From Clostridia bacterium (GTDB taxonomy: Bacteria > Bacillota > Clostridia > Christensenellales > CAG-1252), in the NCBI GenBank assembly GCA_017444385.1, contig JAFSWQ010000008.1, positions 71,685-135,684 of the forward strand: DNA of 64,000 nt, written 5' to 3'. A model generated the notes under the pieces. It saw only the letters and a list, made by a program, of their open reading frames with translations, was not told the DNA's origin and did not search any database. How positions within the stretch are numbered: position 1 is the stretch's first letter; each line of letters starts with the position of its first letter. A program made the position numbers and the translations under genes. Below, one piece after another: positions 4,555 to 64,000 of this stretch.

Positions 4555-4589
4555 TTAGGGGATCCTTCGACAGGCTCGGGAAGAGGTAC
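4555..4589 (+). repeat. Degenerate single arm of the REP/MITE-like hairpin family (locus A)
   Basis: TTAGGGGATCCTTCGACAGGCTCGGGAAGAGGTAC resembles the right arm at 62501-62535. Confidence 0.7.
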
Positions 4590-9200: not shown

Positions 9201-10839
9201 TATAACCGATTACGAATCCATTCTCGACCTTTGCAATACGGCGTTCCCGCAAATATACCTCAAATGGCATTATAGAAGCAAATACGAGGAACTTATCAAC
9301 TTCTCGAACGTGAACTTCTACGACTCTCAACTCGTCACCTTCCCGTCGGTAGAGAGGAAGAAACAATGGATAGGCGTGGATTTCTATTACGTCGAAGACG
9401 GCGTATTCGAGCATAACACGGCGGTAAATAAGAAAGAAGCCGAGAGAGTGGTCGAGCTTATCTACGAAAATATAGAGAAGTATCCCGATAGAAGTTTGGG
9501 CGTTATCGCTTTCAGCACCCGTCAACAAGCGCTAATCGAAAAGGCGTTATGGAACGTTAGAAAGGATCACCCCGACAAAGAATTCTTCTTCTCGTCTGAT
9601 AGAAAGGAACCCTTCTTTATAAAGAATCTCGAAACCGTTCAGGGCGACGAAAGAGATACCGTCATTTTGAGCGTAGCCTACGGTAAAGACGCGGAAGGCA
9701 AGGTATTGCATAATTTCGGGCCTCTCAATAAAACGGGCGGCGAGAGAAGACTTAACGTCGCGGTATCGAGAGCGAAATGCAATATGCAGGTCGTAGCCTC
9801 TATGAAATACACCGATATCGACTTGAATAAATCCAAAGCGAAAGGCACGGTGCTTCTTAAAGAGTATTTGCGTTTTGCAGAGCTTGGCGCCGAGGACGTT
9901 CAAGGCAAGAAGAGAGAACTCATCGTCGACGATAGATTTTGTAACTCCGCTTACGACTACTTACGTGGGCGCGGTTTCGTCGTAGAGAGAAACGTCGGTT
10001 TATCGGATAGAAAGATAGATTTAGCGGTCAAAAACGCCGAGGGCGACAGTTACGTTTTGGCGATAGAGTGCGACGGCAACGAGTACGGCTCTTTCGAAAC
10101 TACTACCGATAGAGATAGACTTCGCAGACAAAACCTCGTTCGCTTCGGCTGGGACTATTACAGGCTTTGGTCGGTCGACTGGTGCGAGAATAATTCGGAC
10201 GAATTGAAGCGCCTCGTCGCCGCAGTCAACAAGTCGTTAAAGAAAGACACCGACAAGAAGAAGGGCGGGGAAGAGCCGAAAGATCCTTCCTTCGACGTGC
10301 CTATACCCGAAACCACCTTCGAATTCCCCAAATACGTGGAAGCCGACGTCGAGAAATTGCGTAAAAAGCACAAGATAAACTTCTTGGCGATCGTTAAAGG
10401 TATTCTCGAAGTGGAGTCCCCAATAAGCGAAGAATTGCTCGTTAAGAAGATGCTATTCTATTTCAATAAAGATAAAGTAACGGCGGAAGTCAACAAGAGC
10501 TACGCGGCGTTAATGAAGAACTGCTCGTCGTTCGGTATAATCCGTCAAAACGAATTCGTCTATCTTGCGGGGCAAACCGAATTCCCGTTGAGGGTAATGT
10601 CTGACGGAAGTATGCGCGACGTGAAGTATATCGCGCTTGAAGAACTTTCCACGGGGCTTCTCGAAATATTAAGAAGAAACGGCTCTGCGGAAAAGGTATC
10701 GTTATATAAGACTCTTTGTTCGTTTTTAGGGTATCAACGCATAGGCGCGGCGGTAATGAGAAGATTAGAGATAGCGCTAAATCTCAACGCGGATATTCTC
10801 GATATCGACGAAGTAAACGTTCGCATTAAAGAAGAGTAG
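6292..10839 (+). CDS. Large SF1 (Upf1-like) helicase with a DUF4011-like N-terminus, a Vsr/DUF559-like endonuclease fold and a DUF3320-like C-terminus
   Basis: 1515 aa. N-terminal LLDLTKNNNLINFKD. Walker A GPPGTGKS, Walker B FDEASQ. Further helicase motifs GDSKQMPP, HYRS, QGDERD, NVAVSRAK. Then IDLAV...AIECDG...W-rich nuclease-like block. Confidence 0.75.
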   Translation: MDEKLKGWAEGLLDLTKNNNLINFKDTRSGTLDVIYPDFNTLFDKINSDATLEVYDPKFDDEDEDEPISDDVESVLRATAPRIKKNNQIIVYNAYTRNPIPILKQIKNKALTVMTETSVNITYVATAFILWKEPDEPDVYKAPILLTPITILNNSALTPFYIETQQDETIVNPTFAYKLKAEHNIDLPDFGDETIDEYVTKVESIVKMLGWSVSRSIKISTFSFLKMNMYVDLKDNSEKILENKNVRALLGIADFEFDGETAKKPLDLFQLHPIVDADSSQSRAMQMARDGVTFVLQGPPGTGKSQSITNIIAECLYAGKKVLFVSEKLAALNVVYEKLKQSDLADFCLELHSSKSNKKDVVKELCRVLNLGKTGVSPKAERELQQIALAKEKLDGYVDELHAERETIKRSLFEMIVEYNETKVEKEIDYVIRDIHLKGEEYFNEITEHLHHYVEMIDYVGEDYRKNCWFGFIGSDPSYSAKVKVKEALLKMVDFLCDLKPVVAELKQKFDIDADSVSLSNKYSNYCLFLSQVRYLLPSTLNKEKAAKVLDLINEQGGSAEKYLKIKGEIDAEFKEDIYALEASLVKNNLVLNYGKGIKRAFSKEYKEISNLFRSYNKSLKKVSYDEILALLDKLIDLKETERVFVENEGKYVGYFNSAYAGVKTDFTRLLNELKAVVEYDLPVGKIASMSEEQFKACRRDLAQIKEKIKATQDEHKDAIKFIHASFDPKDFNLLKLPIDSVIEKFTLCNANIDEIVNWINFYALFVKIREMDVADYLPTYIDEGVKKEEVVKVFKKIFFKEWFDYVIQNTPSLAELGRILHDRTVDQFAEKDQLQFAVNKAKIKAKVSSSRPDLDLITAGSPISILMREGEKKRRHKPIRQLLEEIPDLVQDLKPCFLMSPLSVSTFLTADFHFDTVIFDEASQIFPQDAVGAIYRGDQLICVGDSKQMPPTNFFNSTITYSENFRDEDITDYESILDLCNTAFPQIYLKWHYRSKYEELINFSNVNFYDSQLVTFPSVERKKQWIGVDFYYVEDGVFEHNTAVNKKEAERVVELIYENIEKYPDRSLGVIAFSTRQQALIEKALWNVRKDHPDKEFFFSSDRKEPFFIKNLETVQGDERDTVILSVAYGKDAEGKVLHNFGPLNKTGGERRLNVAVSRAKCNMQVVASMKYTDIDLNKSKAKGTVLLKEYLRFAELGAEDVQGKKRELIVDDRFCNSAYDYLRGRGFVVERNVGLSDRKIDLAVKNAEGDSYVLAIECDGNEYGSFETTTDRDRLRRQNLVRFGWDYYRLWSVDWCENNSDELKRLVAAVNKSLKKDTDKKKGGEEPKDPSFDVPIPETTFEFPKYVEADVEKLRKKHKINFLAIVKGILEVESPISEELLVKKMLFYFNKDKVTAEVNKSYAALMKNCSSFGIIRQNEFVYLAGQTEFPLRVMSDGSMRDVKYIALEELSTGLLEILRRNGSAEKVSLYKTLCSFLGYQRIGAAVMRRLEIALNLNADILDIDEVNVRIKEE

Positions 10840-10913
10840 CACAAACAAATCCTAAATATAAAAGAATATTGAAATTTTCCTGTTAAGAATAAAATAATAT
10901 CACGGAGGCAAAT

Positions 10914-11213
10914 ATGATAGACGCTAAAGACGCTAAAAAAATCTCAAAAGAGAATTCCGATCACTCGATAATACCTAAATGGTTGGAAAACGATATAAAA
11001 GAAGCCGCTGAAAAAGGGCAGAGAAAATACGTTTATAGCGAAAGATTTTACAATCCCGGTTGGTATTGGTTTGATCCCGCTCAAATAAAAAGCTGGAATG
11101 AGCATATGAAATACCCGAAAGAATGCGCAAGATGGTTAAGAAAGCACGGATACAAGGTAAGGCTCATAACCAATTACTTAAAGTTCGAATACACTATAAA
11201 AATCTACTGGTAA
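10914..11213 (+). CDS. Hypothetical protein (99 aa), immediately downstream of the helicase-nuclease
   Basis: GGAGG RBS. No recognisable motif. Confidence 0.5.
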   Translation: MIDAKDAKKISKENSDHSIIPKWLENDIKEAAEKGQRKYVYSERFYNPGWYWFDPAQIKSWNEHMKYPKECARWLRKHGYKVRLITNYLKFEYTIKIYW

Positions 11214-11342
11214 TACTGTTAAAGAAGTTATGCCGAAGAATAATGCAAAAAGCACGGCATCAAATACGTCAACGATTAAAGAGGTTTTATTATAAAGTAT
11301 AAGCCGTTTACGGTTTCATGATTATTCTAGAGTATTACAAAA

Positions 11343-11427
11343 AGGGGATACTTCGACTGCGCTCATTTAGACGAACCTAATCAAATTCGTCGTATGATCG
11401 GCGTAAAGTAGAGTCGAAATATCCCCT
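11343..11427. repeat. REP/MITE-like hairpin element (locus B) between convergent genes
   Basis: Arms AGGGGATACTTCGAC (11343-11357) and GTCGAAATATCCCCT (11413-11427) are inverted repeats. An A run precedes and T-rich sequence follows. Confidence 0.8.
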
Positions 11428-11472
11428 ATTTAATTGCCTTAACGGTTATAAGTTGTAGCCGTTAACGATCGT

Positions 11473-17261: not shown

Positions 17262-17405
17262 AAAAAAAAGGACTGTGACTATTACCCTTAATTTAGGGAT
17301 CCTTCGACTACGCTCAGGATGACGTACTTATCATATTCGTCATATTGAGCGGCGTGAAACAGAGTCGAAATATCCCATATTGGATAATAATTCACAGTCT
17401 TTTTT
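17262..17405. terminator. Bidirectional terminator-like stem (A8-GACTGTGA ... TCACAGTC-T6) whose loop holds REP/MITE-like element C
   Basis: 8-bp inverted arms at 17271-17278 and 17392-17399, flanked by an A run and a T run, between the convergent recR and 17415-19010 genes. Confidence 0.6.
17294..17377. repeat. REP/MITE-like hairpin element (locus C), two inverted arms
   Basis: TAGGGATCCTTCGACTACGCTCAGGATGACG ... CGTCATATTGAGCGGCGTGAAACAGAGTCGAAATATCCCA. Confidence 0.85.
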
Positions 17406-19176: not shown

Positions 19177-19392
19177 CTATTGTTTCTTACTCTTACGATA
19201 TTCGTCGTAGGTTAATACTTTGTCTATGATTATGCCGGCGTAGTCGACTTCGCCGTCGAGTCCTATACATTTCATACAGTTATCGCAAACTTTGGTCGAG
19301 TCGAATTCGCAAAGGTCGCAATAACCGCAATTATCGCAAATATTTTCTTCAACTATTACGCAATGCTTTACGCCGTCGTCTTTTTTAGCCAT
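19177..19392 (-). CDS. Cys-rich mini-protein (71 aa, 10 Cys), translationally coupled to the recombinase
   Basis: CDNCGYCDLCEFDSTKVCDNCMKC pattern. Its start overlaps the recombinase stop by 8 nt. Confidence 0.55.
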   Translation of the reverse strand: MAKKDDGVKHCVIVEENICDNCGYCDLCEFDSTKVCDNCMKCIGLDGEVDYAGIIIDKVLTYDEYRKSKKQ

Positions 19393-20440
19393 CTTCTTCG
19401 TCTTCCTTTTTCCTTATTTTTACCACGCCGGCAGCCTGTCTTTTTATATCTTCGTCTATAGCGGCGTAGTGCCTTTTTGTCGTTTCAATGCTCGTATGCC
19501 CGAGAACCTCCGCAACGACGTATATATCTTTGGTTTCTCTGTATAGATTCGTACCGAACGTTGAACGCAGTTTATGCGGCGTTATATGCTTTAATGGGGT
19601 AGCGATTTCCGCATACTTTTTTACCATAATTTCCACCGTTCTCACGCCTATTCTTTTATTTTGCATAGAGAGGAATAGAGCGGTGGTTTCTACCTCTAAA
19701 GAGCGGCGATATTCCATATACTCTTCCATGATCTCGATAACTTCTTCGGGCAGGTAGAGAATGGTACGATTACCGCCTTTCCTCGTTACTCTAAACGAGC
19801 CGGCGGCGAGATCCACGTCCTCGATATTCAACCCGACGCATTCGGATACGCGAATACCAGTGCCGAGCATTAAGGTAAGCAGCGCGACGTCGCGGATTTT
19901 GGTTTTTTCGTGGTATTTTTGCGCTCTCGATGAGAGTTCTTCGCCGCCTTCAACTACGTCGAGAAAATCGGTCATCTCCTCGCCCTCTAACCTTATTATC
20001 TCTTTCGAATGCTTTTTAGGCATATCGACTTTGGTGGAAACGTTTTCTCTTAGCAGGTTTTTATTATATAAATAGGCGAAAAGCCGCCTTAATGAAGCAA
20101 GTTTCCTCGATTTACCTTCCGCGCCGTTATTTCTCGTAATGCCGTTTTCATCGACGTAAGAGGTAAGATAATCTAAATAATTCTCAATATCCGTTTGAGT
20201 AACCGCGTTTAATTGATCTATGGTAAAGTCCTCGATGGACGTATTTTTGAATTTTCTCACTTCGTTAGTTAAATAATTGAAGAATACCAAATAATCACGG
20301 CCGTAATTCAATCGCGTAAGCGGAGAAGTAATATTGGACATCGCAACGAAGAACTGCGAACAAAATTCGGGCAGCCGATCGCGTAGTTCTTTAATTTGTT
20401 TTATTATCTTTTCGTCGCGTTCTTGAGAATAATTCTTCAT
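19385..20440 (-). CDS. Tyrosine site-specific recombinase (XerC/XerD/integrase family)
   Basis: 351 aa. N-terminal SAM-like domain. Catalytic pattern GTGIRVSE (Arg), HKLRSTF (His-x-x-Arg), LGHTSIETTKRHY (His...Tyr). Confidence 0.85.
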   Translation of the reverse strand: MKNYSQERDEKIIKQIKELRDRLPEFCSQFFVAMSNITSPLTRLNYGRDYLVFFNYLTNEVRKFKNTSIEDFTIDQLNAVTQTDIENYLDYLTSYVDENGITRNNGAEGKSRKLASLRRLFAYLYNKNLLRENVSTKVDMPKKHSKEIIRLEGEEMTDFLDVVEGGEELSSRAQKYHEKTKIRDVALLTLMLGTGIRVSECVGLNIEDVDLAAGSFRVTRKGGNRTILYLPEEVIEIMEEYMEYRRSLEVETTALFLSMQNKRIGVRTVEIMVKKYAEIATPLKHITPHKLRSTFGTNLYRETKDIYVVAEVLGHTSIETTKRHYAAIDEDIKRQAAGVVKIRKKEDEEDG

Positions 20441-20714: not shown

Positions 20715-20792
20715 TTGTCACCTCAAAAAATATTGTATCATATGTGAAAGAAAATTACAAGTGATATTGTAAAATAAAATCAAAAAAAATGT

Positions 20793-20815
20793 TTATTATG
20801 TACTGTACATAATAA
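20793..20815. promoter_or_regulatory. Perfect 23-bp palindrome TTATTATGTACTGTACATAATAA upstream of the XRE gene (candidate operator)
   Basis: 11-bp arms are exact reverse complements around a central T at 20804. The core equals the TACTGTA heptamer of the neighbouring repeat arrays. Confidence 0.6.
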
Positions 20816-20888
20816 TATAGAAAAATAGTAGTTTTTCAGTCAAGAGACGTTTGATAATACATTAGAAGGGCTCAGCGTATAAAAAGCG

Positions 20889-21249
20889 TACAGTATATAA
20901 CATACAGGATATAAAATACAGGATTATATATACAGTAGGTTATATACAGTATGTATTATACAGTATATATTATACAGTAACTGCACGATTTATAAAATGT
21001 ATATAGAGTACAGTACATATTATACACTACATATTACACAGTACATAGAATACAGTATATTGTATACAGTACATAAAATACACCATATATACATAGCGTA
21101 CAGTATAGATTATACACTACAATATGTACAGTGTATATACAAATAGTACAGGGTGTTATGTACAGTACATATTATACAGTAAATATACATAATATACAGT
21201 AGTATATATACAGTACATATCGTATATACAATATACGTTTTGTACAGAT
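20889..21249 (+). repeat. 14-bp-periodic TACWGTA repeat block 1 (almost all TACAGTA)
   Basis: Cores at 20889, 20903, 20917, 20931, 20945, 20959 and 20973 are exactly 14 bp apart. Later cores at 21009, 21023, 21037, 21051, 21065, 21079, 21099, 21113, 21127, 21147, 21161, 21175, 21195, 21209 and 21243 are spaced 14, 20 or 34 bp. Confidence 0.9.
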
Positions 21250-21398
21250 AGTGTTAGATTTTTCGTAAATCATAATATTAAACGGGATTTATTAAGGTTT
21301 GAGATAATCATAAAGAGGATTAAGTAGAGAAGACCACGGTTTAGAGGGAGATCGCGTATAAAAGCGGCGCGGTTATTAAAAACCCGTAGAGAAGGGTA

Positions 21399-21432
21399 TC
21401 TATACAAAACGTACATATCGTTAAAATTTTAA
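21399..21432 (+). repeat. 34-bp direct repeat, copy 1 (TCTATACAAAACGTACATATCGTTAAAATTTTAA)
   Basis: Identical 34-mer recurs at 22410-22443. Weaker similarity continues ~45 nt downstream (GGGGTCGAAATTTA vs GGGGACAAATTTA). Confidence 0.85.
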
Positions 21433-21548
21433 GACGATTATTTAATTATTGGGGGTCGAAATTTAATAAAATCAACACGTTATTTTCATATAAATCGAAT
21501 AGAGCAGCCATCTACCTTCGCTATACAGATATAAAAAATATTATTGTG

Positions 21549-21701
21549 TACATTATGTACAGTGTATGTACATAGCGTACAGTATAATTTATACGGTATA
21601 TAATGTACATATTATATACGTTTAGTACAGTACATAATATACTGATATACGTACGATATATACAGTACAATATGTACATATACTGTACGTTTTGTACAGT
21701 A
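21549..21701 (+). repeat. 14-bp-periodic TACWGTA repeat block 2 (mostly TACAGTA)
   Basis: Exact TACAGTA at 21578, 21626, 21661 and 21695; TACTGTA at 21681; many one-mismatch cores (TACATAT, TACGGTA, TACAGTG). Confidence 0.85.
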
Positions 21702-22120
21702 TATAACATTGAAAATTTTAATTTACCAGTATCCGCAAATAAAATACAATTCATATAAGCGTTAAAAAGTATTAAGATCGTATGAATCGACGGCATATTA
21801 ATAATAATGACTAATATATTATATCAAATACGGCTGGCTTAATACAATTCTATTTCTTTTATCCCGGATATCGAGCAATACTTCAAAGTATATCGTTATC
21901 CTTTATAACTCATGTATTGTTTTTACGTAGATAGCAATTAAGAATACGGCTTTGATTATAAACTATCGCGACAAAATGCGGCAAGCTCTAAACCATAAAC
22001 CAATCTTTGCTTCTAAAAGTCCTACGGTCACGCGGGTTTTTTGCTTTCATTCAGGATCATATCACGCCAATTTGAAAATACGCCTAAAATGTCGTTTATA
22101 TATTACATATTAGCCACTAA

Positions 22121-22150
22121 CTATTCGCAAAAGTATGCTTTTGCGAATAG
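22121..22150. other. Perfect 13-bp-stem hairpin CTATTCGCAAAAG-TATG-CTTTTGCGAATAG in the unique core of the ORF-free region
   Basis: The arms are exact reverse complements. No long U tract on either strand. Confidence 0.7.
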
Positions 22151-22409
22151 TTTACAAAAATATCATCACATTGGCAACACGATCGCAAGCTACCGGATTT
22201 ACAAATATTCTTAAAAATTGATTGATATCCGCTCTGCCCTGCGTTCGTATATTTACCAGCAGTAAATTCAAGCAATGATTCTTATAGATAATTTGGCGTA
22301 AAAATAACGAAAAATCACTAAACAAGATGAGAACTTCACGTATTGATTTATATCTTTAATAGTTTATCTTTCCGACCGCCATATTAATAAAAACCTCAAT
22401 TAAACTACC

Positions 22410-22443
22410 TCTATACAAAACGTACATATCGTTAAAATTTTAA
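22410..22443 (+). repeat. 34-bp direct repeat, copy 2
   Basis: Identical to 21399-21432, 1011 bp downstream. Confidence 0.85.
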
Positions 22444-22541
22444 AGCAAATTTATAATCTAACGGGGACAAATTTAGCGATTATTATCAATATTTCGCAAC
22501 GATAAGAAGGATCATTTCTACGATTGTATGATATGTATAGT

Positions 22542-22776
22542 TACTGTACAAACTGTACACAAGATTATATTATGAGTTAAAATGGGATAGATAACTCTGA
22601 ACTCATAATAGATTTCCCGATACACCACACTTCTCTATCCGAATTCCTAATAAAGAACTAAATGTATATAATGTACTGTATTTTATATACTGTACTTTTC
22701 GTATATTTCCTGTACATATTATACTGTATTATTTGTATATATTATATACGTTTTATACTGTATTATATAAACTGTA
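22542..22776 (-). repeat. 14-bp-periodic TACWGTA repeat block 3 (TACTGTA orientation), interrupted at 22561-22660
   Basis: TACTGTA at 22542, 22674, 22688, 22722 and 22756. Near-cores at 22552, 22708 and 22770. Spacings 14, 20 or 34 bp. Confidence 0.85.
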
Positions 22777-22858
22777 CATATCATACATAGTAACGACGCT
22801 TGATAGATATTGTAATGCTGAACTATTTGAACGCAATATTTGAAAAATACTTTGCTCA

Positions 22859-23136
22859 TTCTGTACATAAAGTACTGTATAATATAGCCTGTACTTTTTG
22901 TATTGTAAGCGCCCTTCTCTATCTTTCTTTAAATCACTCTGCTATCTATCATTACATAGATAACGATGTACGTTATGTATATTTATTGTATAGAATGTAC
23001 AGTATATAACGTACTGTATAATTTATATGTAATATATACATATTGTACTGTACATATACTACTATACAGTATATACTATACACTATATACTGTATAGTAC
23101 ATACTGTATATTACATACTGTACTTTATGTACTGTA
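22859..23136 (-). repeat. 14-bp-periodic TACWGTA repeat blocks 4-5 (mostly TACTGTA)
   Basis: Cores at 22859, 22873 and 22887, then TACTGTA at 23012, 23046, 23088, 23102, 23116 and 23130. Two TACAGTA at 22998 and 23065. Confidence 0.85.
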
Positions 23137-23190
23137 CTTTTTTATATGCATATTATATACTTAAATTTCTTACTTTATTACTTGCAGATT

Positions 23191-24429
23191 CTATTTTTTT
23201 AATTCGCTTAAAATGCCTTCTAATGCGATTTTAACGTGTTCGTAGGTTAAACCGCCCTGAACATAGGCGATATAAGGGGGCTTAATCGGCGCGTCGGCAG
23301 ATAATTCAATACTTGCGCCGCCTACGAACGAACCAGCAGCCATAATAACCTTTTCGTTATATCCCGGCATATCCCACGGTTCCGGTAAAACGTCGCTATC
23401 GATGGGCGAATACTTTTGTATGGTTTGGATAAACTTAATCAAATCATTTTCGTCATTAAAGACGATCGAGCGAATTATATCGTTCATTTCTTCTTCGGGC
23501 TCGGGTATGGGGTGATAGCCGCATTTTTTCATTACGGCGCCTATTAAGACGCTTCCTTTTAACGCGTTCGCCACAATATGCGGGGCAAGGAACAAGCCTT
23601 CGTAATAATTTTGATAACCGTACATATAAGAGCCTACTTCGTTGCCGAGTCCCGGCGCGGTAAGACGGAACGCAGCCTTCTCTACCGCCTCTACGGTACC
23701 CACCAAATAACCACCAGTGGGCGCCAATCCGCCGCCAATGTTTTTAATGAGCGAACCGATAGTAAGATCCGCGCCGAATTCGGACGGCTCGTTTTCTTGG
23801 GTAAATTCACCGTAACAGTTATCAACGACAAAATAGAGTTTTCGATCTACTCTCTCTTTAACGTAGGCAATAAGCGCACCTAGATCAGTGACTTTTAGCG
23901 CCTTACGCGAAGTATATCCGCGACTTCTCGTAACGTAAACTACTTTAATTTCGCTATGAGTATTTATAGTATCGATTATCTCGTCAAATTTAAAGCCGCC
24001 GGATCCGTTTAGATCGCTTTGATAATAACCTATACCGTATTCCTTTAACGAGCCGCTTTCGCCGTTTATAACGCCCATTAAAGTATCGTACGGCTCGCCG
24101 GTGACGCTGTATAACGCTTCACCGCTTCTCAAAAGCGCAAAAAGTCCAATCGTCAAAGCGTGTGTGCCGTTAGCGATAAGCGGGGAAACGAGCGCGGCTT
24201 CGGTCTTAAAAACGTCTGCGTAAACATGGCAAAGAGAATCCCTGCCAATATCGCCGTAGCCGTAGCCCGAAGAGCCTTTGAGGTGTCTTTCCGCAATGCG
24301 ATTTTTTCTGAAAGCCTCAAGGACTTTCTTTTGATTATAATAAGCGATTTCGTCAATACGCTTATAAATATGAGAATATTCTTTTTCCGCTTCCTCTATC
24401 AAATTAATCCCGCTATCAACGTAAGCCAT
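23191..24429 (-). CDS. Methionine gamma-lyase-family / aluminium-resistance-type PLP protein (YnbB-like)
   Basis: 412 aa. Typical position downstream of miaA in Firmicutes. Cys/Met-metabolism PLP fold features. Confidence 0.7.
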   Translation of the reverse strand: MAYVDSGINLIEEAEKEYSHIYKRIDEIAYYNQKKVLEAFRKNRIAERHLKGSSGYGYGDIGRDSLCHVYADVFKTEAALVSPLIANGTHALTIGLFALLRSGEALYSVTGEPYDTLMGVINGESGSLKEYGIGYYQSDLNGSGGFKFDEIIDTINTHSEIKVVYVTRSRGYTSRKALKVTDLGALIAYVKERVDRKLYFVVDNCYGEFTQENEPSEFGADLTIGSLIKNIGGGLAPTGGYLVGTVEAVEKAAFRLTAPGLGNEVGSYMYGYQNYYEGLFLAPHIVANALKGSVLIGAVMKKCGYHPIPEPEEEMNDIIRSIVFNDENDLIKFIQTIQKYSPIDSDVLPEPWDMPGYNEKVIMAAGSFVGGASIELSADAPIKPPYIAYVQGGLTYEHVKIALEGILSELKK

Positions 24430-32629: not shown

Positions 32630-32843
32630 AGTAAACCTCCAAATTGGTTTTATTTTACTATAATTATATATAATAATTATAAAAAAATCAAACGATATAA
32701 TAGCGGTTAGAAAAAAATATCGTTTGAGCGGAAATTTTTTTAGATGATTATATTATCTAAAACGGTAAAGGATATTATGCTTATCAGTGCAGGTTATAAT
32801 TTCGAAAATTGCTTTTTATAAAAAACGAGAGGTATTATATACT

Positions 32844-33383
32844 TGTCATGTTGAGCGTAGTCGAAACATCTCATCCGATTTACATACTTTTACAATAGTA
32901 GTACCTCTTTTTAGGGGATCCTTCGACGACGGCTTACGCCTGCTCAGGATGACGTACCTCAACTAATTCTTTACTGTAAAGGCTGGTATTCGTTATTATT
33001 GATTCGATTATTTACGAATTTTATCGTTTGTTTAATAAGACAATTATTCTATTTATTCGTCATGTTGAGCTTGTCGAAACATCTCATCCGATTTACATAC
33101 TTTTACAATAGTAGTACCTCTTTTTAGGGGATCCTTCGACGACGGCTTACGCCTGCTCAGGATGACGTGCCTCAACTAATTCTTTACTGTAAAGGCTGGT
33201 ATTCGTTATTATTGATTCGATTATTTACGAAAGTTATCGTTTGTTTAATAAGACGATTATTCTATTTATTCGTCATGTTGAGCTTGTCGAAACATCTCAA
33301 CCGAATAAATGATAAATCGATTACTTCTGCTTCGCGTTAGGGGATCCTTCGACGACGGCTTACGCCTGCTCAGGATGACGTAC
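32844..33383 (+). repeat. Tandem array (2.5 units, period 213-215 bp), each unit holding one full REP/MITE-like element (locus D)
   Basis: GTCATGTTGAGC starts at 32844, 33059 and 33272. Units 1 and 2 are nearly identical. Unit 3 shares the arms but has a different interior. Confidence 0.9.
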
Positions 33384-33430
33384 TTTTATTGATATCTTTG
33401 ATTAGGATAATTCTTACACAAAAAATACGT

Positions 33431-33577
33431 GCGAAGAAAGTTATAATTTTTGCGTAGCAAGTTATCGTTCGAGCGAAGAAAGTTATAATTTTTGCGTAGC
33501 AAGTTATCATTCGAGCGAAGCGAGTTATCATTCTTACGCAGCGAGTTATCATTCTTGCGTAGAGAGTCTATCACATT
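33431..33577 (+). repeat. Seven tandem 21-bp repeats (iteron-like), organised partly as a 42-bp super-repeat
   Basis: Units start at 33431, 33452, 33473, 33494, 33515, 33536 and 33557. Consensus about GCGWAGNRAGTTATCRTTCNN. Units 1+2 match units 3+4 except for 1 nt. Confidence 0.9.
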
Positions 33578-43058: not shown

Positions 43059-43102
43059 AGGGGATCGTTCGACTTCGCTTAATCAAGGTCGAAATATCCC
43101 CT
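43059..43102. repeat. Short REP-like hairpin (locus E) in the dnaK-dnaJ spacer
   Basis: AGGGGATCGTTCGAC - 14 nt - GTCGAAATATCCCCT. 15-nt inverted arms with 2 mismatches. Confidence 0.8.
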
Positions 43103-54558: not shown

Positions 54559-54698
54559 GTACGTCATCTGAGCGTCGTCGAAGGATCCCCTAACTTAAGC
54601 ACGTCATCCTGAGCGTCGTCGAAGGATCCCCTAAGAAGTGGTAATACTCTCATAAAACTCAAATCGGATTAGACGTTTCGACTACGCTCAACATGACG
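54559..54698 (-). repeat. REP/MITE-like element (locus F), inverted relative to locus D, with one arm duplicated
   Basis: ACGTCATCTGAGCGTCGTCGAAGGATCCCCTAA, then ACGTCATCCTGAGCGTCGTCGAAGGATCCCCTAA, then ~45 nt, then GACGTTTCGACTACGCTCAACATGACG. Confidence 0.85.
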
Positions 54699-54835
54699 AA
54701 TAATATATTTATCAATTATTTATAACTAAAACTATATCATTAAAACAAACGCGGTAAAAAACAATACACCGCGTTCTTTTTTATCAAAAAAACAATTCGC
54801 CTGCTCTTCTTAATATTGATAAAAAACCTTATTTA

Positions 54836-58211: not shown

Positions 58212-60437
58212 CTAAACGTCATAGTTACTTATCAGTTTTGCGGGCGTACGCGTAAGATATGTAAGCGGCGTAAGTAATGCGACAAGGACGCTGAATACAG
58301 CCATAACCGCAAGAGACGCGAGCGCGAGCCAGACGGGATAATAAATTATCTGCGTGCCGATTAGGTTTTCAAGAGTATTGATAACGCTCATATTATCGGC
58401 GGCTATCACCACTACCGACGAGAACAGCCAACCTCTAAAAGAGGATAACGAGAAAATATACAAACTCTCGAAAAACGCGTTTAGTACAAGTTGATTTTTA
58501 GGTACGCCTATCGTACGCATTATTGCGAACTTCTTTTGCGCCGCGATAAAACGCGATTTAGTAAGCTTATACACGCCGATAAGTTGTACGACGAGCAACA
58601 ACACGATTACCAAAAGCGATATAACGTGAGTCGCTATGGAAGTTTTATAGAAGATCTTTTTGACGTAAGTCGCGTAAGAAGTGGCTTTTATTCCTTTGTC
58701 CTCCAATTCTTTTATCGTCTTACGGGGATTATTCGCGTAGAAAAAAGTATTAGCGTCCTTGTAGACGTAATTTTCAAGCGTATATAATCTCTCATAATCG
58801 GCGTCCGAAACGTAAACGAGCGGCTCGTTTCTATTCTCTAATCCAACGATGGTAAGATACAACGGTTCGTCGGTTACGACGGTTTCCGTATAAGCGGTGG
58901 GCTTATTATAATAATCCTCTTCGTTGCCCTCGGGATAGTAATAAACGCTACCGTATATTTTATTGTCGATATCCAACCTCATACCGATAAGCTGTTCGGG
59001 TAAGACTATGCCGACGTCGCTTAACGAAGTGTTTTTGATTCCTCTATCGTATAGAAGTTTATCAACTTTGACTTCGCCTTCATCGAGGGCGATTCCGAAA
59101 ATAGAAGCGGGTAAAACCCCGACGTTACTTGCGTTGCCGAGGCTTGCCTGCGATTCAAAAGGCGAAGCGCCCGCCGAAATAGTAACGCTCACGTTTACGC
59201 CTTTATTCACTACTCTACCGTCAAGCCCCATCTTCGCAACGTCGCTTTCTTTGGCGTTAATGCAAATTACGTTGCTATCGTGCGGTTTATAAGCAAATTC
59301 GTTGTATACAAGCGAGCCGGCGTTAGCCGCAACGAGCAAAACGAATATGAGCGAACACAAAAACATAGTGCGGAAGCGGTTTTTTCTTCTCTGCCCACGA
59401 GTCGCCAAAAAGTCGTTTAATACGTTTTTACAGGTGCGCTTATAGTCTATCGCGTGGGTCTTTTTGCGTTCGGTTGCGGTGAGTTTATCGAGATCCAGTT
59501 CCGCCTCGTCCTCGTTTTTTTCTTTTACAGTGTATTTCTCTTCGGTGAGTTTAATCGAACTATCCTCGTCCACGATATTTACGACCTTATCGGTATCTAT
59601 CTTAATATAGAGCTTGTTGTCGTAGGATACGATCTTGATATTCGCCTTAGCGTTGTGTTCGCCGAAGAATTCCATATTCAAGCCGCCCAACGTGACGTCG
59701 TTTCTCTCGAGGTCGCCGAGATATATAACGTCTTTCGATCTATGATCGAGCGTCGCGTTGCTTTCGTTTATCTCGTCGGAAACGACCTTTCCGTCGGCAA
59801 GCCTTATTATCCTATCCGCGTAATAATCGGCGAGATTTTCCTCGTGAGTGACCATAATGACGAGGCAATGCTTGGATAGTCCTTTCAAAATACGCATTAC
59901 AGCCACGGTGTTCGTATCGTCGAGGTTGCCCGTCGGCTCGTCGGCAATGAGTATCTCGGGATTTTTAACGATGGCTCTCGCAATACCTACCCTTTGTTGT
60001 TGACCGCCCGATAGGTTTTGCGGATAACGGTTCTGGTATTTCGCCAAACCCACAAGGTCGAGCGCGTACTCTATCCTTTCCTTTTGATTATCGACTATGC
60101 CCGCAAGGTCGAGAGAAATCTTCAAATTCTCGCTTACCGTGATATCCGGGATAAGGTTGTAGTTTTGGAAAACGTAACCTATTTTACGGTTTCTCAACTC
60201 GTCGAGTTCCTTTGCGTTATACTTCGAGAAGGTCTTGTCATCGATGGTGACTTCCCCGCTGTTGAAGACGTCGAGTCCGCCTAAAACGTTCAATAGCGTA
60301 CTCTTACCGCATCCCGACTTACCCAAAAGCACGACGAGTCCCTTCCCTTCGAGTTCGAGGGTTACGCCGTCGACCGCTTTTATCTCGTTCGACTTATTAG
60401 TGTTATAGTACTTAAAGAGGTTATTGATTTTAAGCAT
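58212..60437 (-). CDS. Fused ABC transporter ATP-binding / FtsX-type permease protein
   Basis: 741 aa. Walker A GKSGCGKST, signature LSGGQQQR, Walker B LIADEPT. C-terminal TM region. Confidence 0.8.
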   Translation of the reverse strand: MLKINNLFKYYNTNKSNEIKAVDGVTLELEGKGLVVLLGKSGCGKSTLLNVLGGLDVFNSGEVTIDDKTFSKYNAKELDELRNRKIGYVFQNYNLIPDITVSENLKISLDLAGIVDNQKERIEYALDLVGLAKYQNRYPQNLSGGQQQRVGIARAIVKNPEILIADEPTGNLDDTNTVAVMRILKGLSKHCLVIMVTHEENLADYYADRIIRLADGKVVSDEINESNATLDHRSKDVIYLGDLERNDVTLGGLNMEFFGEHNAKANIKIVSYDNKLYIKIDTDKVVNIVDEDSSIKLTEEKYTVKEKNEDEAELDLDKLTATERKKTHAIDYKRTCKNVLNDFLATRGQRRKNRFRTMFLCSLIFVLLVAANAGSLVYNEFAYKPHDSNVICINAKESDVAKMGLDGRVVNKGVNVSVTISAGASPFESQASLGNASNVGVLPASIFGIALDEGEVKVDKLLYDRGIKNTSLSDVGIVLPEQLIGMRLDIDNKIYGSVYYYPEGNEEDYYNKPTAYTETVVTDEPLYLTIVGLENRNEPLVYVSDADYERLYTLENYVYKDANTFFYANNPRKTIKELEDKGIKATSYATYVKKIFYKTSIATHVISLLVIVLLLVVQLIGVYKLTKSRFIAAQKKFAIMRTIGVPKNQLVLNAFFESLYIFSLSSFRGWLFSSVVVIAADNMSVINTLENLIGTQIIYYPVWLALASLAVMAVFSVLVALLTPLTYLTRTPAKLISNYDV

Positions 60438-62424
60438 TGTTGATCACCCCTTTTATCGTATTTTTATATAGATAGCGGTTAAACCTGTTGGCGTTTCCTA
60501 TGGTGACGAAGACGTTTACGGCAAGCGCGATAAGGTTAATCCAAGAGATATTCCCCGCATATCCTTTAAGCAGCGAGAATCCGAAAGAGATCTCGGGCGT
60601 TATCGAGAAGCCGTAAATGATCAATACCAAATAGGATAATATAGTCCCCGCAAGCCAACCGATAACTGCGGTCAAAATCATTTCAACGTAGTAAACCCGC
60701 TTTATAAACCAGTCGTCAAGCCCCGTCGTACGCATAATATTGTAATCGCGGCTCTTGACCTTTTCCACGTCTTTAATACTTCCGTTCGTTATTCTAAACA
60801 CTATCGCGGTGAGTCCAAGTAAACCGATTATCGTCAATAAAACGTAAATACTCGTTATTCCAAGCCCGGACACGCCGTACTTGTACGTAACGACGTAGCC
60901 TTTTCCCGCTAATTCCTTAATAGTTTTGTTGATATTTGCCTTAGGATCTAAAGTCACGACGAGCCCGTAATCGTGATAAGGGTTATCCGTATATGGATTC
61001 TCGGCTATCGCCTTTTCAAGAAAACCGTCGCTCGTTATAATAAGGTCGTCTTTATCTCTTACTATCACGCCGCAAACCGTCAATTCGTAGTCGAGAGGCT
61101 CGTGATATACCGAAAAAAGCAAACCCGTACCCGCGAATTCTTCTCTGTTTATTACCTTACCTATCCAATCTTTCGCCGTATATTTACGCGATTGCGGCAG
61201 AGTGATAACTATCTCGTTATCCTTTTCGGGCATTCTTCCGCGATAAATTATCACGTCGGTTGACGACGCGTTGCGCAAATAACCCGAGAATTCTTTGCCG
61301 TCTACGATGACCGTCATCATCGCGTTCAATATATAATTATAGGGATAAACGTGAGAAACACCTTTTACCGACTTGATAGAGGCGAGGTCTTCCTCGTTAA
61401 ACGAATAATAAGCGGACAATTCTTCGTCGGATTTTCCTTCGTGAGATATCGCTTTTTTAGTGATTTCCAAGTCGTACTTATAATAGTTCGTGTTGTCGAG
61501 AATGCTCTTTTGTTTATGTAACGACGGCATACTTTGCCCTATCGCCAGTATAAAGACCCAAATAAAGACGACCGTCAAGAAAGCCAACGAGGTAAGCGTG
61601 AAAATCGTCCTTTTAGGCGTGGCTTTTATATTGTAGAATCCAACGCGGAAAAGGTTGGCGTATCTCGCTTTTTTAGATATTTCCCTTTTAGTCGAGAGGT
61701 TTTCGCTCTCAGAGGGGCTACTCAAAACCTCGTCTTCGCTCACTTCCCCGTCCGCAAGGCGTATCTTTCTCGTTGCGTAAGGCTCTAATTCCTCAAACGA
61801 GTGGGTAACGATGAAAACGAGTTTGCCTTTCGCTAACTTAAACAGCAATTCGAGTATTTCTCGGCTGGTTTCGGCGTCAAGGTTGCCGGTCGGCTCGTCG
61901 GCAAACAAAATGGGCGCGTCTTTCGCCAATGCGCGAGCGATCGAGACCCTTTGCTTTTGCCCGCCCGAAAGCTTACTTCCGCGACTGTTTTCAAAGCCTT
62001 TCAAACCTACTTCTTCAATAAGTGAAAGCACTTTCTTCTTACGTTCTTCGTTATCTTCAACGGAATTTAATAGAGCGAGTTCGATATTTTGATAAACCGT
62101 GTAACTATCGATAAGATAGTAATCTTGAAAGATAAACGCTACGTTTTCATTCCGGAAAGCCGCTCTTTCCGCTTCGTTAAAGTAGTTAATACTCTCGCCC
62201 TTAAAAAAGTATTCGCCGTCGTCGAAAGTATCAAGACAGCTCAAAACGTTCAGCAAGGTACTTTTACCGCTACCCGAACTACCCGTAATTGCGACGTATT
62301 CGCCTTGATAAAAGGATAGAGATATCTTGTGCAAGCCTACCGTCAGCGCGCCTTGATTATATATCTTCGACACTTTATTTAGTTGTATCAAAGGTTTGTT
62401 TTCTTCCATATCGTCATTTATCAT
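60430..62424 (-). CDS. Fused ABC transporter ATP-binding / FtsX-type permease protein (paralogue of the downstream gene)
   Basis: Walker A GSSGSGKST, LSGGQKQR, LFADEPT. The start is ambiguous (62424 or 62409). The ORF-track start at 62472 lies inside a REP/MITE-like copy. Confidence 0.75.
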   Translation of the reverse strand: MINDDMEENKPLIQLNKVSKIYNQGALTVGLHKISLSFYQGEYVAITGSSGSGKSTLLNVLSCLDTFDDGEYFFKGESINYFNEAERAAFRNENVAFIFQDYYLIDSYTVYQNIELALLNSVEDNEERKKKVLSLIEEVGLKGFENSRGSKLSGGQKQRVSIARALAKDAPILFADEPTGNLDAETSREILELLFKLAKGKLVFIVTHSFEELEPYATRKIRLADGEVSEDEVLSSPSESENLSTKREISKKARYANLFRVGFYNIKATPKRTIFTLTSLAFLTVVFIWVFILAIGQSMPSLHKQKSILDNTNYYKYDLEITKKAISHEGKSDEELSAYYSFNEEDLASIKSVKGVSHVYPYNYILNAMMTVIVDGKEFSGYLRNASSTDVIIYRGRMPEKDNEIVITLPQSRKYTAKDWIGKVINREEFAGTGLLFSVYHEPLDYELTVCGVIVRDKDDLIITSDGFLEKAIAENPYTDNPYHDYGLVVTLDPKANINKTIKELAGKGYVVTYKYGVSGLGITSIYVLLTIIGLLGLTAIVFRITNGSIKDVEKVKSRDYNIMRTTGLDDWFIKRVYYVEMILTAVIGWLAGTILSYLVLIIYGFSITPEISFGFSLLKGYAGNISWINLIALAVNVFVTIGNANRFNRYLYKNTIKGVINNA

Positions 62425-62438
62425 TAAAACATTTTTTT

Positions 62439-62535
62439 CGTCATGTTGAGCTTGTCGAAACATCTCTTCCATATTTATTTTATAATTACAGTACCACTGT
62501 TTAGGGGATCCCTCGACAGGCTCGGGATGACGTAC
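62439..62535 (+). repeat. Full-length REP/MITE-like element (locus G, copy 1)
   Basis: CGTCATGTTGAGCTTGTCGAAACATCTC - ~40 nt AT-rich - TTAGGGGATCCCTCGACAGGCTCGGGATGACGTAC. Confidence 0.9.
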
Positions 62536-62548
62536 TTATTCACTCACG

Positions 62549-62637
62549 CGAACGCAGCGAGCGTTCGAGAAAACCATAAAGGTTTTCGAGAAAAAGGAAC
62601 GACCAAGCATAGGTGATGTTGACAATTATTTGTCAAC
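62549..62637. promoter_or_regulatory. Three consecutive short palindromes between the two locus-G repeat copies
   Basis: CGAACGC-AGCGA-GCGTTCG (62549-62567); GAAAACC-ATAAA-GGTTTTC (62569-62587); GTTGACAA-TTAT-TTGTCAAC (62618-62637). Confidence 0.6.
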
Positions 62638-62653
62638 GAATAAAAGCGAAAGT

Positions 62654-62752
62654 CGTGACGCGTTGAGTTTGTCGAAACATCTCTTCCATATTTATTTTAT
62701 AATTACAATACCACTGTTTAGGGAATCCCTCTACTGGCTAGGGATGACGTAC
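62654..62752 (+). repeat. Full-length REP/MITE-like element (locus G, copy 2, more diverged arms)
   Basis: CGTGACGCGTTGAGTTTGTCGAAACATCTC...TTTAGGGAATCCCTCTACTGGCTAGGGATGACGTAC. The interior is near-identical to copy 1. Confidence 0.85.
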
Positions 62753-62820
62753 TTGTTTTCTTCGCATAGTTAAAGGCTGTGAATATAATCACAGCCTTTA
62801 CTTCAATATCGAATCACCTT

Positions 62821-64000
62821 TTACTCTTCAGTGGAAGTTTCCGCTTCTTGCGATTCTTCGGCGGGGGCTTCCTCTATAGCCGCGTCGTCTGCTGTTTCTT
62901 CGATAATTACTTCTTCGTTACCGGTTTCTTCGGTTTCGCCGTCTACTACGGTTTCGCCATTATCTTCCGTAATCCCTTCGAAGACTTCGTCGAGAGCGGC
63001 TTGTTCTCTTTGTCTTCTTCTCTCGATGAGCTCGGCAAGTATCTTTGCGTGTTCCTTATCGTCAAGGGCGTATTTCCAAGTGGGGATAACGCTCAATAAG
63101 CAGGAAATAGCCGAAGGAATGGAAATAACGAGGAACAATATCATCATAAAGTTGCTGTACTCGGTGGCAAGCCTCGGCGTACCGCCCGCGTTGATAAACG
63201 CGTTTACTTCCGCTACGCGCGCGTCAGAGAATCTAACGATGGAATACGCGATACCCGTAATAATTGTAGCGAGACCGGATTGCAACTTAACGAGGAAGGT
63301 TTGACCCGAGAAGAACAACGCGTCGGGGCGTCTGCCCGATTTATACTCTTCGTAGTCTACGCAGTCGGCTATCATAGTGGATTGCAAAACGTTCAGCGCG
63401 CCGGTACCTGCGCCCGCAAAGGCGAACAATACGAAGCATACCGCTATCCAAACGGGCGCCGTCAAAGAGTGCGGCGCGATCTTATACGCTACGAATATGA
63501 GAATAAACGGAAGAACCATTATAAGATTGCTTGCGTTATAAACGTGTTTCTTTGAGAATTTCTCGCTCAATTTAGGCGCGAAGCCCATACCCGCGAACAT
63601 ACCGACGAACAAACCGCCGCCTAATAGTCCCATATATACGAAGGTCATTATAGGGCTCTTACTCGCGAAGTAGTAACTTACGATAGTCATAGCGACTATA
63701 TTGATTATGCTCTTCGCGCTGCCTAAAACGCCGGATATCAACAATTGGACGTAAGGTTTATTGTGAATAATTATCTTTAAGTTGTCTTTTAGGTGAGTTT
63801 TTTCGGTAGCGGCTATTCTTTCCTTTACTTTAAATCCGGTGAGTTGGAACATTATCGTACCGATTAGGGAAATGATAATCGCAACCACTAAGAAGCCGTA
63901 TTTTTCACCGTCGGCGGCGGTAAGACCGAATTTACTCGCTATCGCGCCTCCCACGCCCAAAGCGATGGGTTGCATCGAAAGCATTACCGCTCCGCCCGCG
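62821..64000 (-). CDS. MFS/GPH-family sugar:cation symporter with an acidic C-terminal tail (N-terminus lies beyond the window)
   Basis: Multi-TM ORF still open at the window edge. GPH-like pattern (DCVDYEEYKSGRRPDALFFSG). Confidence 0.7.
   Translation of the reverse strand, partial: AGGAVMLSMQPIALGVGGAIASKFGLTAADGEKYGFLVVAIIISLIGTIMFQLTGFKVKERIAATEKTHLKDNLKIIIHNKPYVQLLISGVLGSAKSIINIVAMTIVSYYFASKSPIMTFVYMGLLGGGLFVGMFAGMGFAPKLSEKFSKKHVYNASNLIMVLPFILIFVAYKIAPHSLTAPVWIAVCFVLFAFAGAGTGALNVLQSTMIADCVDYEEYKSGRRPDALFFSGQTFLVKLQSGLATIITGIAYSIVRFSDARVAEVNAFINAGGTPRLATEYSNFMMILFLVISIPSAISCLLSVIPTWKYALDDKEHAKILAELIERRRQREQAALDEVFEGITEDNGETVVDGETEETGNEEVIIEETADDAAIEEAPAEESQEAETSTEE

Follow-up and report, generated by a model that had tools for sequence, protein, structure and literature searches.

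What is the roughly 100-nt hairpin element at 62439-62535 of a 64,000-nt stretch of an uncultured Clostridia chromosome (contig JAFSWQ010000008.1; hereafter the window), and how did its copies come to lie in several spacers between the genes? An earlier note on this DNA had described the element as a member of a dispersed family with compensatory stem changes, resembling repetitive extragenic palindromic (REP) sequences, bacterial interspersed mosaic elements (BIMEs) and miniature inverted-repeat transposable elements (MITEs). We found a repeat family whose stems change in compensation, whose dimers join unlike units, which is absent from the orthologous spacers of a sister species, and which has no transposase nearby. 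The copies are probably REPs of the CGTC-tagged superfamily described in 2013, whose head-to-head (HH) heterodimers, resembling REPINs (REP doublets forming hairpins), would have spread as non-autonomous DNA by an enzyme acting in trans.

The window was scanned in full, with filters off, using a covariance model (R1) trained on 31 hairpins from IMG/VR contigs only, with no window sequence among them. R1 returned 13 matches (E 1.7e-9 to 2.9e-4), all at the loci of the earlier note, and the next match had E = 0.12. Altogether the 64 kb contain 13 intact units and about 6 decayed ones, all outside annotated genes; the decayed copies (4555-4589, 11343-11427, 43059-43102 and 62654-62752) either scored an R1 E of at least 0.12 or were recognized by eye only. 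A repeat finder recovered the copies as families D7, D10-D14 and D17 and as inverted pairs I7, I9 and I13, and the sequences at 62439-62535 and at every other coordinate in the earlier note read as it had described them.

Each unit is a hairpin of 32-44 nt in which an unpaired CGTC (or TGTC) tag is followed by the stem, the loop and a C-rich 3-nt tail, C(C/T)C, giving the consensus CGTC-AT-NNN-GAGC-loop-(G)TCGA-N'N'N'-AT-C(C/T)C. The stem has 8-9 positions, only 5 + 2 of which are standard pairs: an A-T and a T-A pair, three variable N-N' pairs, a conserved G.A and A.G at positions 6-7, and then G-C and C-G, where a single base bulges on the 3' strand side. In the window the tag reads (T/A)CGTC or TTGTC ahead of the AT, and among 419 external units the commonest 4-mers 5' of the stem-opening CAT are CTGT, CCGT, GTGT, TTGT and TCGT, so that G-T-C stands immediately ahead of the A-T start; the commonest external tails are CCC and CTC. 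The window units fall into two kinds. Alpha units have the stem GTT/AAC (ATT/AAT in one copy), the loop TT or GTA, which counted from the G-C pair is C-TTG-T or C-GTA-G (5-6 nt), and the tail CTC. Beta units have the stem CCT/AGG or CCC/GGG, a loop of 2-17 nt, the tail CCC, and GTAC immediately ahead of the tag. The HH elements of the window join one alpha and one beta unit with the tags outside, over ~100 nt and across a partly conserved spacer of 36-45 nt.

At the locus in question, the HH heterodimer spans 62436-62535 on the plus strand and consists of an alpha unit at 62436-62467(+), CGTC-AT-GTT-GAGC-TT-GTCGA-AAC-AT-CTC, a 36-nt AT-rich spacer, and a beta unit with the stem CCC/GGG at 62504-62535(-) (R1 E = 3.6e-6 and 3.2e-6). 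The segment 62439-62535 reads CGTCATGTTGAGC-TT-GTCGAAACATCTC, the AT-rich interior of 36 nt, and TTAGGGGATCCCTCGAC-AG-GCTCGGGATGACG. A second, decayed HH dimer follows on the same strand at 62654-62752 (repeat family D11, 93% identity to 62445-62540); it has mutations in both tags and in the GAGC/TCGA cores, and R1 gave only 8.8 bits for 62721-62752. The mechanical open reading frame (ORF) 60430-62472 extends into the 62.4 kb element, an overlap that arises from an upstream in-frame ATG, and the in-frame ATG at 62409 is the more likely start. At 54599-54701 an HH heterodimer lies in the opposite orientation, on the minus strand, with beta at 54599-54631(+) and alpha at 54669-54701(-) (R1 E = 1.1e-7 and 3.2e-6; I7, I9 and I13), adjoined by an extra plus-strand beta unit at 54559-54590 (R1 E = 2.9e-4) that is the product of a 41-nt tandem duplication (Tandem Repeats Finder: period 41, 2.0 copies, 94% matches). 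Three plus-strand HH heterodimers (32841-32957, 33055-33170 and 33268-33383) form a cluster at 32841-33383 with six R1 matches, 32841-32873(+), 32914-32957(-), 33055-33086(+), 33127-33170(-), 33268-33299(+) and 33340-33383(-). Here a 213-nt block, made of a dimer and ~100 nt of flank, was duplicated in tandem (Tandem Repeats Finder: period 213, 2.5 copies, 91% matches; D7 copies 98% identical). The GGC-GTAA-GCC insert reported earlier for one loop variant is a nested mini-hairpin in the beta (3') arms of all three of these dimers, at 32.9-33.4 kb. Between this cluster and the stop of an AP-endonuclease-like gene lies a 21-nt (42-nt) tandem repeat of ~6 copies (33428-33574), whose units contain GAGCGAAG and TGCGTAGC, two sequences similar to the loop module of the REP units.

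The remaining copies are arranged differently. At 17295-17377 a tail-to-tail (TT) dimer with its tags inside is formed by a beta unit at 17295-17327(-) and an alpha-like unit with the stem ATT/AAT at 17335-17377(+) (R1 E = 2.7e-9 and 3.2e-5), and it sits 3' of recR in the loop of the palindrome GGACTGTGA...TCACAGTC, which has flanking A and T runs. A decayed TT dimer related to it lies at 11343-11427 (R1 E = 0.12 for 11344-11376(-)), and the inner halves of another remain as the palindrome GGGGATCGTTCGAC...GTCGAAATATCCCC at 43059-43102, in the spacer between dnaK and dnaJ (DnaK and DnaJ by Pfam). A decayed single beta-like unit occupies 4555-4589 on the minus strand, with the tag CCTC and a broken stem (D14, 86% identity to 62493-62536; no R1 match at E <= 10). 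The window thus holds six HH dimers, two TT dimers and one TT remnant, and one extra tandem unit. The single ~100-nt form that the earlier note had assigned to the whole family describes the HH dimers and does not describe the 17.3 and 11.3 kb copies, in which the arm order is reversed.

The local stems are kept by compensatory change. In the alignment of the window matches, 96.4% of cells are paired vs 84.8% in shuffles, none of 500 shuffles reached the observed value, and both sides change at three stem pairs; the stem types ATGTT/AACAT, ATATT/AATAT, ATCCT/AGGAT and ATCCC/GGGAT, cited in the earlier note as co-varying, are all present. In window alignment A2 the first pair is A-U in 11 of 12 rows and the second is U-A in 10 of 12. 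The covariation also holds in a larger, independent sample, where none of 500 shuffles matched the values observed in alignment A1. The generic pattern GTCAT-NNN-GAGC-N2-16-GTCGA-NNN-ATC, with its triplets left free, matched at least 120 stretches in IMG/VR; among the matches listed, which comprise 185 units, 163 units carry fully complementary triplets vs ~5% by chance, with at least 12 stem types that include CCT/AGG, TCC/GGA, TCT/AGA, CCC/GGG, TTC/GAA and GCT/AGC. Furthermore, covariation extends to the inner 2-bp helix and its bulge (16 of the 25 units with a non-GC inner pair, vs ~14% by chance). External loops fall into two classes, one of 2-3 nt, mostly C-GNA-G triloops, and one of 11-13 nt that forms a second module of GA/GA, 2 bp and GNA, and the 2 bp of this module covary as well (GC/GC, CC/GG, AC/GT and GT/AC). 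Both C-GNA-G triloops and tandem G.A pairs are very stable in DNA, and their prevalence fits a substrate that would be single-stranded DNA.

The same hairpin occurs far outside the Clostridia. The exact beta arm, GGGATCCTTCGAC-N2-16-GCTCAGGATGAC with 25 fixed bases, was found in at least 118 stretches of species-representative genomes (596 Gb, for which we estimated a chance expectation of ~0.02), in more than 12 phyla. Among the matches listed, its carriers include Acidobacteriota, Verrucomicrobiota, Coriobacteriia, Clostridia, Gemmatimonadales, Nitrospirota, Gammaproteobacteria, Deltaproteobacteria, Rhodothermales, Pedobacter, Armatimonadota, Binataceae and several candidate-phyla-radiation lineages. 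The remark in the earlier note that the arm motif resembles GTCATTCTGAGCG..CGAAGAATC-type hairpins scattered in many bacterial genomes is borne out by the spread of the motif over phyla in the pattern searches. The exact alpha arm was found in 103 stretches of metagenomes, of the gut and of other habitats, and a partner unit whose stem differs often comes after it. Some of the IMG/VR carriers are true tailed phages, with units between the scaffold, portal, major head and terminase genes; the tailed-phage contigs L080, L042 and L024 and ~15 related IMG/VR loci bear up to 10 units per 14 kb, mostly on one strand. A BLAST search with the 44-nt consensus unit against isolated phages and plasmids, the sensitivity of which is too low for such short queries, returned only one phage and two Hymenobacter plasmids.

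Two further kinds of external locus were observed. In the Ga0256405 metagenome (L248, L251, L265, L269, L272-L274, L278, L293 and others), the alpha unit lies inside a longer conserved repeat with a common 5' flank such as TACTTTCGTACTTTGTCTAT and a common downstream sequence, which suggests composite elements built round the hairpin. At L193 3600-5800, in the Gemmatimonadales metagenome-assembled genome (MAG) CAWBZF010000001.1, two tandem arrays face each other, with ~14 units of 97 nt and ~10 of 73 nt, and each array unit contains one CGTC hairpin, CGTCATCCTGAGCC(C/T)GTCGAAGGATCCCTC.

Arrangements were counted over about 2.7 Mb of external loci plus the window. The paired-arm architecture proposed for the window is the commonest paired arrangement elsewhere, with 88 HH pairs, 13 TT pairs and 17 head-to-tail pairs, the last mostly from arrays, and 357 more units are singles by the strict pattern. 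Most HH spacers measure 18-73 nt (5-144 nt across all 88). The two arms are almost always of different stem type: 85 of the 88 HH dimers are heterodimers, and only 2 of the 63 pairs that contain CCT are CCT+CCT, though CCT makes up 32% of the units in the unbiased IMG/VR sample. This heterodimer rule fits selection against long perfect palindromes, as the authors of the 2013 study had suggested (PMC3733652).

Rfam, at gathering thresholds over the window, matched tRNA only. It gave zero matches at E <= 10 over the 32.8-33.4 kb cluster, and at a foreign multi-copy locus two chance-level matches (E 2.9 and 5.4), far under the gathering scores and off the hairpin units. Ribozyme, k-turn and tRNA- or tmRNA-like readings of CUGA...GAA and TTCGAC were considered and rejected, as the hammerhead core CUGANGA...GAAA is not kept between the arms and there is no Rfam match. 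A literature search with literal sequence strings returned unrelated primers only.

Copies avoid genes and divergent spacers. Externally, 73% of the units are intergenic though crude ORFs cover 85% of the DNA, and single units lie 63 times in convergent and 19 times in divergent spacers (background spacer lengths 80 kb vs 64 kb). Within unidirectional spacers there is no orientation bias, with 53 sense vs 60 antisense units. A first count had indicated equal use of convergent and divergent spacers; this count was misleading because tandem arrays and the counting of both dimer arms inflated it, and it was replaced by a cleaner count of singles and dimers in which divergent spacers are depleted. 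In the window, three loci are convergent, three unidirectional and one divergent. The claim that every copy lies just 3' of a gene holds as a tendency; it fails for 4555-4589, which lies in a divergent spacer between a minus-strand metallophosphoesterase gene and a plus-strand unannotated 112-aa ORF, and the 62.4-62.75 kb copies lie past a hairpin that trails the gene of a major facilitator superfamily (MFS) protein and abut the start of the next gene. Complementary stems of at least 8 bp flank 11.8% of the external HH dimers vs 0.9% in permuted controls, and therefore a subset of the elements lies within larger hairpins. In the test for intrinsic terminators, C-rich tails and not T runs follow the units, no terminator-like site was found in 62300-62900, and the A and T runs at 17.3 kb belong to the larger palindrome that encloses the TT dimer.

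Comparison with relatives shows how unevenly the family is distributed. RecR and PGI of the window share 65-70% identity with proteins that carry the name Clostridia or Clostridiales, and in a sister species (RecR 83%, PGI 87%) the gene order is conserved over ~42 kb, corresponding to 6-45 kb of the window. R1 found no unit in this ~42 kb of syntenic sister DNA, in which range the window has four loci, and none in a further relative. The spacers in question are longer in the window: 173 nt vs 88 nt in the sister from recR to the next gene, 941 nt vs 398 nt (40 nt in the further relative) from the AP-endonuclease gene to PGI, 112 nt vs 52 nt from dnaK to dnaJ, and 633 nt vs 62 nt from the helicase gene to lacZ. 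After recR the relatives have a plain terminator-like hairpin without a unit, where the window has the palindrome holding the TT dimer, and in the dnaK-dnaJ spacer the window remnant stands in place of an unrelated simple hairpin of the sister. By this comparison, the elements were gained in the window lineage or lost in the relatives since their split, that is, recently. Gain is the simpler reading because two outgroups lack the elements. Further assemblies of this species either match the window exactly at the recR, PGI and SpoU loci or are broken or gapped inside the cluster, and thus give no polymorphism information. The helicase-lacZ spacer (10840-11472, 633 nt), where the sister has a plain hairpin, also contains a 99-aa ORF without a Pfam match (10914-11213) beside the decayed TT dimer; the ORF and the 11.3 kb repeat may have arrived together.

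The closest known system is the CGTC-tagged superfamily, which Di Nocera, De Gregorio and Rocco (BMC Genomics 2013; PMC3733652) set apart from the GTAG-tagged REPs, with the families CGTC-1 to CGTC-4 and members such as Neisseria dRS3 (CGTC-1) and Rickettsia RPE-4 and RPE-6. The study describes short (20-40 bp) stem-loops in many copies, mostly in intergenic DNA, the terminal CGTC of which is often TGTC or CCTC, with stems of 8-9 bp that almost invariably open with complementary A-T, loops of 4-5 nt (with exceptions in Bradyrhizobium, Kosmotoga and Mesotoga) and an unpaired 3-nt tail with the consensus CCA. HH dimers, whose spacers (20-100 bp) show a tendency to conservation, dominate, TT dimers are rare, head-to-tail dimers negligible and heterodimers frequent; clusters are dimers reiterated with flanking DNA, and the repeats lie between unidirectional and convergent ORFs with no transposase association. 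The window units share with this description the unpaired tag and its TGTC and CCTC variants, the A-T and T-A opening pairs, the predominance of HH heterodimers with conserved spacers of 20-100 bp, the rarity of TT dimers, the tandem clusters of dimer plus flank, the location in unidirectional and convergent spacers and the lack of an associated transposase. In stem, loop and tail the agreement is partial: there are 8-9 stem positions, alpha has a 5-nt CTTGT-type loop, and a 3-nt tail is unpaired. The units differ from the description in the conserved tandem G.A and the 1-nt bulge within the stem, in loops of 2-3 nt (mostly C-GNA-G) up to 11-17 nt with a nested mini-hairpin, in the tail CTC or CCC instead of CCA, and in the host, as the Clostridia belong to a phylum outside the coverage of the paper, which reports CGTC repeats from Proteobacteria, Chlorobi, Bacteroidetes, Spirochaetes and Thermotogae only. 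The 2013 pipeline dropped repeats that had two or more mismatches, except for partners in a dimer, and the GAGC...TCGA variant is not among the REP-encoded peptides in Additional file 3 of that paper. Two later works, Quentin et al. 2018 and RepRanger 2025, cite the GTAG/CGTC classification and add nothing further on CGTC mobilization. The family of the window is a new member, possibly a distinct variant, of the CGTC-tagged REP kind described in 2013, in a new host phylum. The 13 units found by R1, the shuffle result and this fit uphold the REP- and BIME-like part of the first description of the family.

Like Escherichia coli BIMEs, the window elements have two kinds of unit alternating in opposite orientation, conserved linker motifs, local clusters and a location at gene ends, but the sequences are unrelated, and binding of gyrase, IHF and Pol I is a known feature of BIMEs. 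As for mobilization, the GTAG REPs and REPINs with their REP-associated tyrosine transposase (RAYT, or TnpA-REP) are said to have been described by Nunvar in 2010, by Bertels and Rainey in 2011 and by Messing in 2012. With these the window elements share a small hairpin whose foot bears a conserved unpaired tetranucleotide, an intergenic location, high copy number and stems that covary by subfamily, and, as in REPINs, the inverted doublet with its spacer is likely to be the replicating unit. The tag is CGTC or TGTC here and not GT[AG]G. The REPIN/RAYT system serves as the working model for the way in which the window elements are probably recognized.

Searches for a mobilizing enzyme gave no candidate. 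As the earlier note had reported, the window has no transposase; Pfam scans of all its major ORFs found only a XerC/D-like recombinase (19385-20440), which is the sole recombinase gene, lies 2 kb from the nearest unit, and occupies the same place in the sister without units. A RAYT/Y1 transposase (PF01797) is absent from the 64-kb window, and in the sampled loci none has units on its flanks. Between pairs of inverted external units lie ordinary genes and one group II intron reverse transcriptase, with no candidate enzyme among them.

In the mechanism that we favor, a dimer or unit would be non-autonomous DNA copied into intergenic spacers, with a preference for existing hairpins, at or inside which it would land. 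A structure-specific enzyme acting in trans would read the folded single strand and the tag, by analogy with RAYT on GTAG REPs. Complementarity would persist since this enzyme, or a host protein, requires the hairpin, and heterodimers would persist since perfect long palindromes are unstable. After insertion, copies may be tolerated, or may be mildly useful as extra hairpins at transcript ends.

Several observations weigh against this account. No exact empty site or insertion junction can be reconstructed, since the spacers of the relatives (83-91% RecR identity) are unalignable outside the gene ends, so that the sister lineage may instead have lost the elements. The dispersed copies of the window are only 76-86% alike and thus bear no mark of very recent transposition; those with 98% identity are tandem duplicates. 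No recurrent transposase-like family was found near the ~590 external units by all-against-all clustering of 5393 ORFs from 239 external loci, which yielded phage structural and ordinary housekeeping genes. The core is near-identical across many phyla, unlike REP/RAYT pairs, which are lineage-specific and vertically inherited. Finally, single units are no stabler than shuffled sequence by nearest-neighbor energies (z about 0), and dimers favor a long arm-to-arm hairpin (z -3 to -7); the 62.4 kb dimer folds into one long hairpin (z = -4.6 as DNA, -6.1 as RNA), and 17262-17402 folds with z = -7.0. The case for the local stems is therefore comparative, drawn from covariation, and not thermodynamic.

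There is also a broader and more tentative version, which we regard as possible but doubtful: the GAGC...TCGA hairpin may be, instead of a set of lineage-bound REPs, one pan-bacterial element that is also carried by phages, the nearly invariant unpaired bases of which (tag, tandem G.A, bulge and tail) would be read by a widespread or horizontally traveling enzyme. This would be a second system of REP mobilization, distinct from RAYT, with horizontal spread and homing to hairpin loops, and the different stems that covary would mark numerous independent subfamilies within a single mobile-element system.

Of the rival explanations, an RNA role has the most in its favor, and even so we judge it unlikely. 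Hairpins transcribed at gene ends might be under selection as cis-acting terminators, blocks to 3' exonucleases or RNase substrates, and spread by recombination or gene conversion. The enrichment of units in convergent and unidirectional spacers and their depletion in divergent ones would suit this, as would the TT dimer that lengthens the recR terminator palindrome, the dnaK-dnaJ remnant where the sister has a simple hairpin, and the G.U pairs gained by the plus-strand RNA of the 62.4 kb dimer (-37.6 vs -28.5 kcal/mol); Di Nocera et al. also argued for it from G-T pairing and location (PMC3733652). However, the genes at 62.4 kb are on the minus strand, whose RNA has the weaker fold, and the copies there already lie past the hairpin of the MFS gene. 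Unidirectional spacers show no preference for sense over antisense, no T run follows the units, no Rfam family matches them, and single units fold no better than shuffles. The copies are also dispensable, being absent at all four orthologous sister sites, and the loops are mostly C-GNA-G triloops, which are exceptionally stable in DNA.

Two explanations in terms of other mobile elements fare worse. The units could be landing pads, kept or multiplied as attachment or target sites. Relatives of the units do serve in this way: dRS3, a CGTC-1 repeat, is the target of the integrase of the Neisseria filamentous prophage Nf1 (PMC7058167), and at L126 2701-4726, in the Gammaproteobacteria MAG JAGVJK010000036.1, a complete group II intron (Rfam domains 1-4 and 5-6; reverse transcriptase ORF of 458 aa) lies within an HH dimer, 7 nt after its first unit. 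In the window, no mobile element lies in or beside any copy, and the sole recombinase gene is 2 kb off and conserved in the sister that has no units; as being a target also leaves the multiplication of the target unexplained, we consider this very unlikely. Still less credible is a classical MITE, that is, a DDE-type insertion sequence shortened by deletion and mobilized by the transposase of its parent element, with the arms as terminal inverted repeats. The length of ~100 nt, inverted ends, AT-rich interior and intergenic location are as in bacterial MITEs (Correia, RUP, Nezha and others), but no direct repeat that would be a target-site duplication brackets any of the six HH dimers, and no insertion sequence with these ends occurs in the window or in the external ORF clusters. 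Each supposed terminal repeat is an autonomous, covarying hairpin that is common alone, as the 357 singles show, the two arms of a dimer are systematically unlike, and TT arrangements exist. The MITE label in the earlier note is therefore not supported, and spread of REPIN-like heterodimers by a trans-acting enzyme remains the reading that we prefer.

CGTC-type REPs are a large REP class still without a known mobilizing enzyme. To what was described for them, the present analysis adds that one 25-base arm occurs in at least 12 phyla, that tailed phages carry related units between their head genes, that dimer arms are almost never alike, and that close relatives differ completely in carrying the elements. 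These facts provide a handle for the hunt for the enzyme, through phylogenetic profiling and comparison of unit abundance with gene content, and bear on horizontal spread. For the window itself, ~1.5 kb of intergenic DNA is accounted for as REP-type repeats and the start of one ORF is revised; the repeats also explain several assembly breaks in public metagenomes.

Other features of the window were observed in passing. A 117-nt tandem repeat at 1454-1847 (3.1 copies, 87% matches) stops exactly where tRNA-Leu(CAG) begins (1847-1932). The gene at 6292-10839 encodes a protein of 1515 aa with DUF4011, AAA_11/AAA_12 helicase and REase_MTES_1575 domains. The sister species has it too, and it may be a helicase-nuclease of the defence type. 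A ~2.5 kb non-coding, AT-rich stretch at 20750-23250 (GC 0.24-0.36) contains a motif that recurs every 14 nt in two opposed arrays, plus-strand TACAGT at 20.75-21.75 kb (19 copies) and its complement ACTGTA at 22.5-23.25 kb (14 copies), and adjoins the XerC/D-like recombinase gene and a helix-turn-helix gene. Because the stretch lies at the peak of the cumulative GC skew and at a flip in gene orientation, it looks like a replication terminus, and it may be a fork trap or a dif-region feature; matching opposed arrays are present at the equivalent place in the sister species (L242 13.75-17.5 kb).

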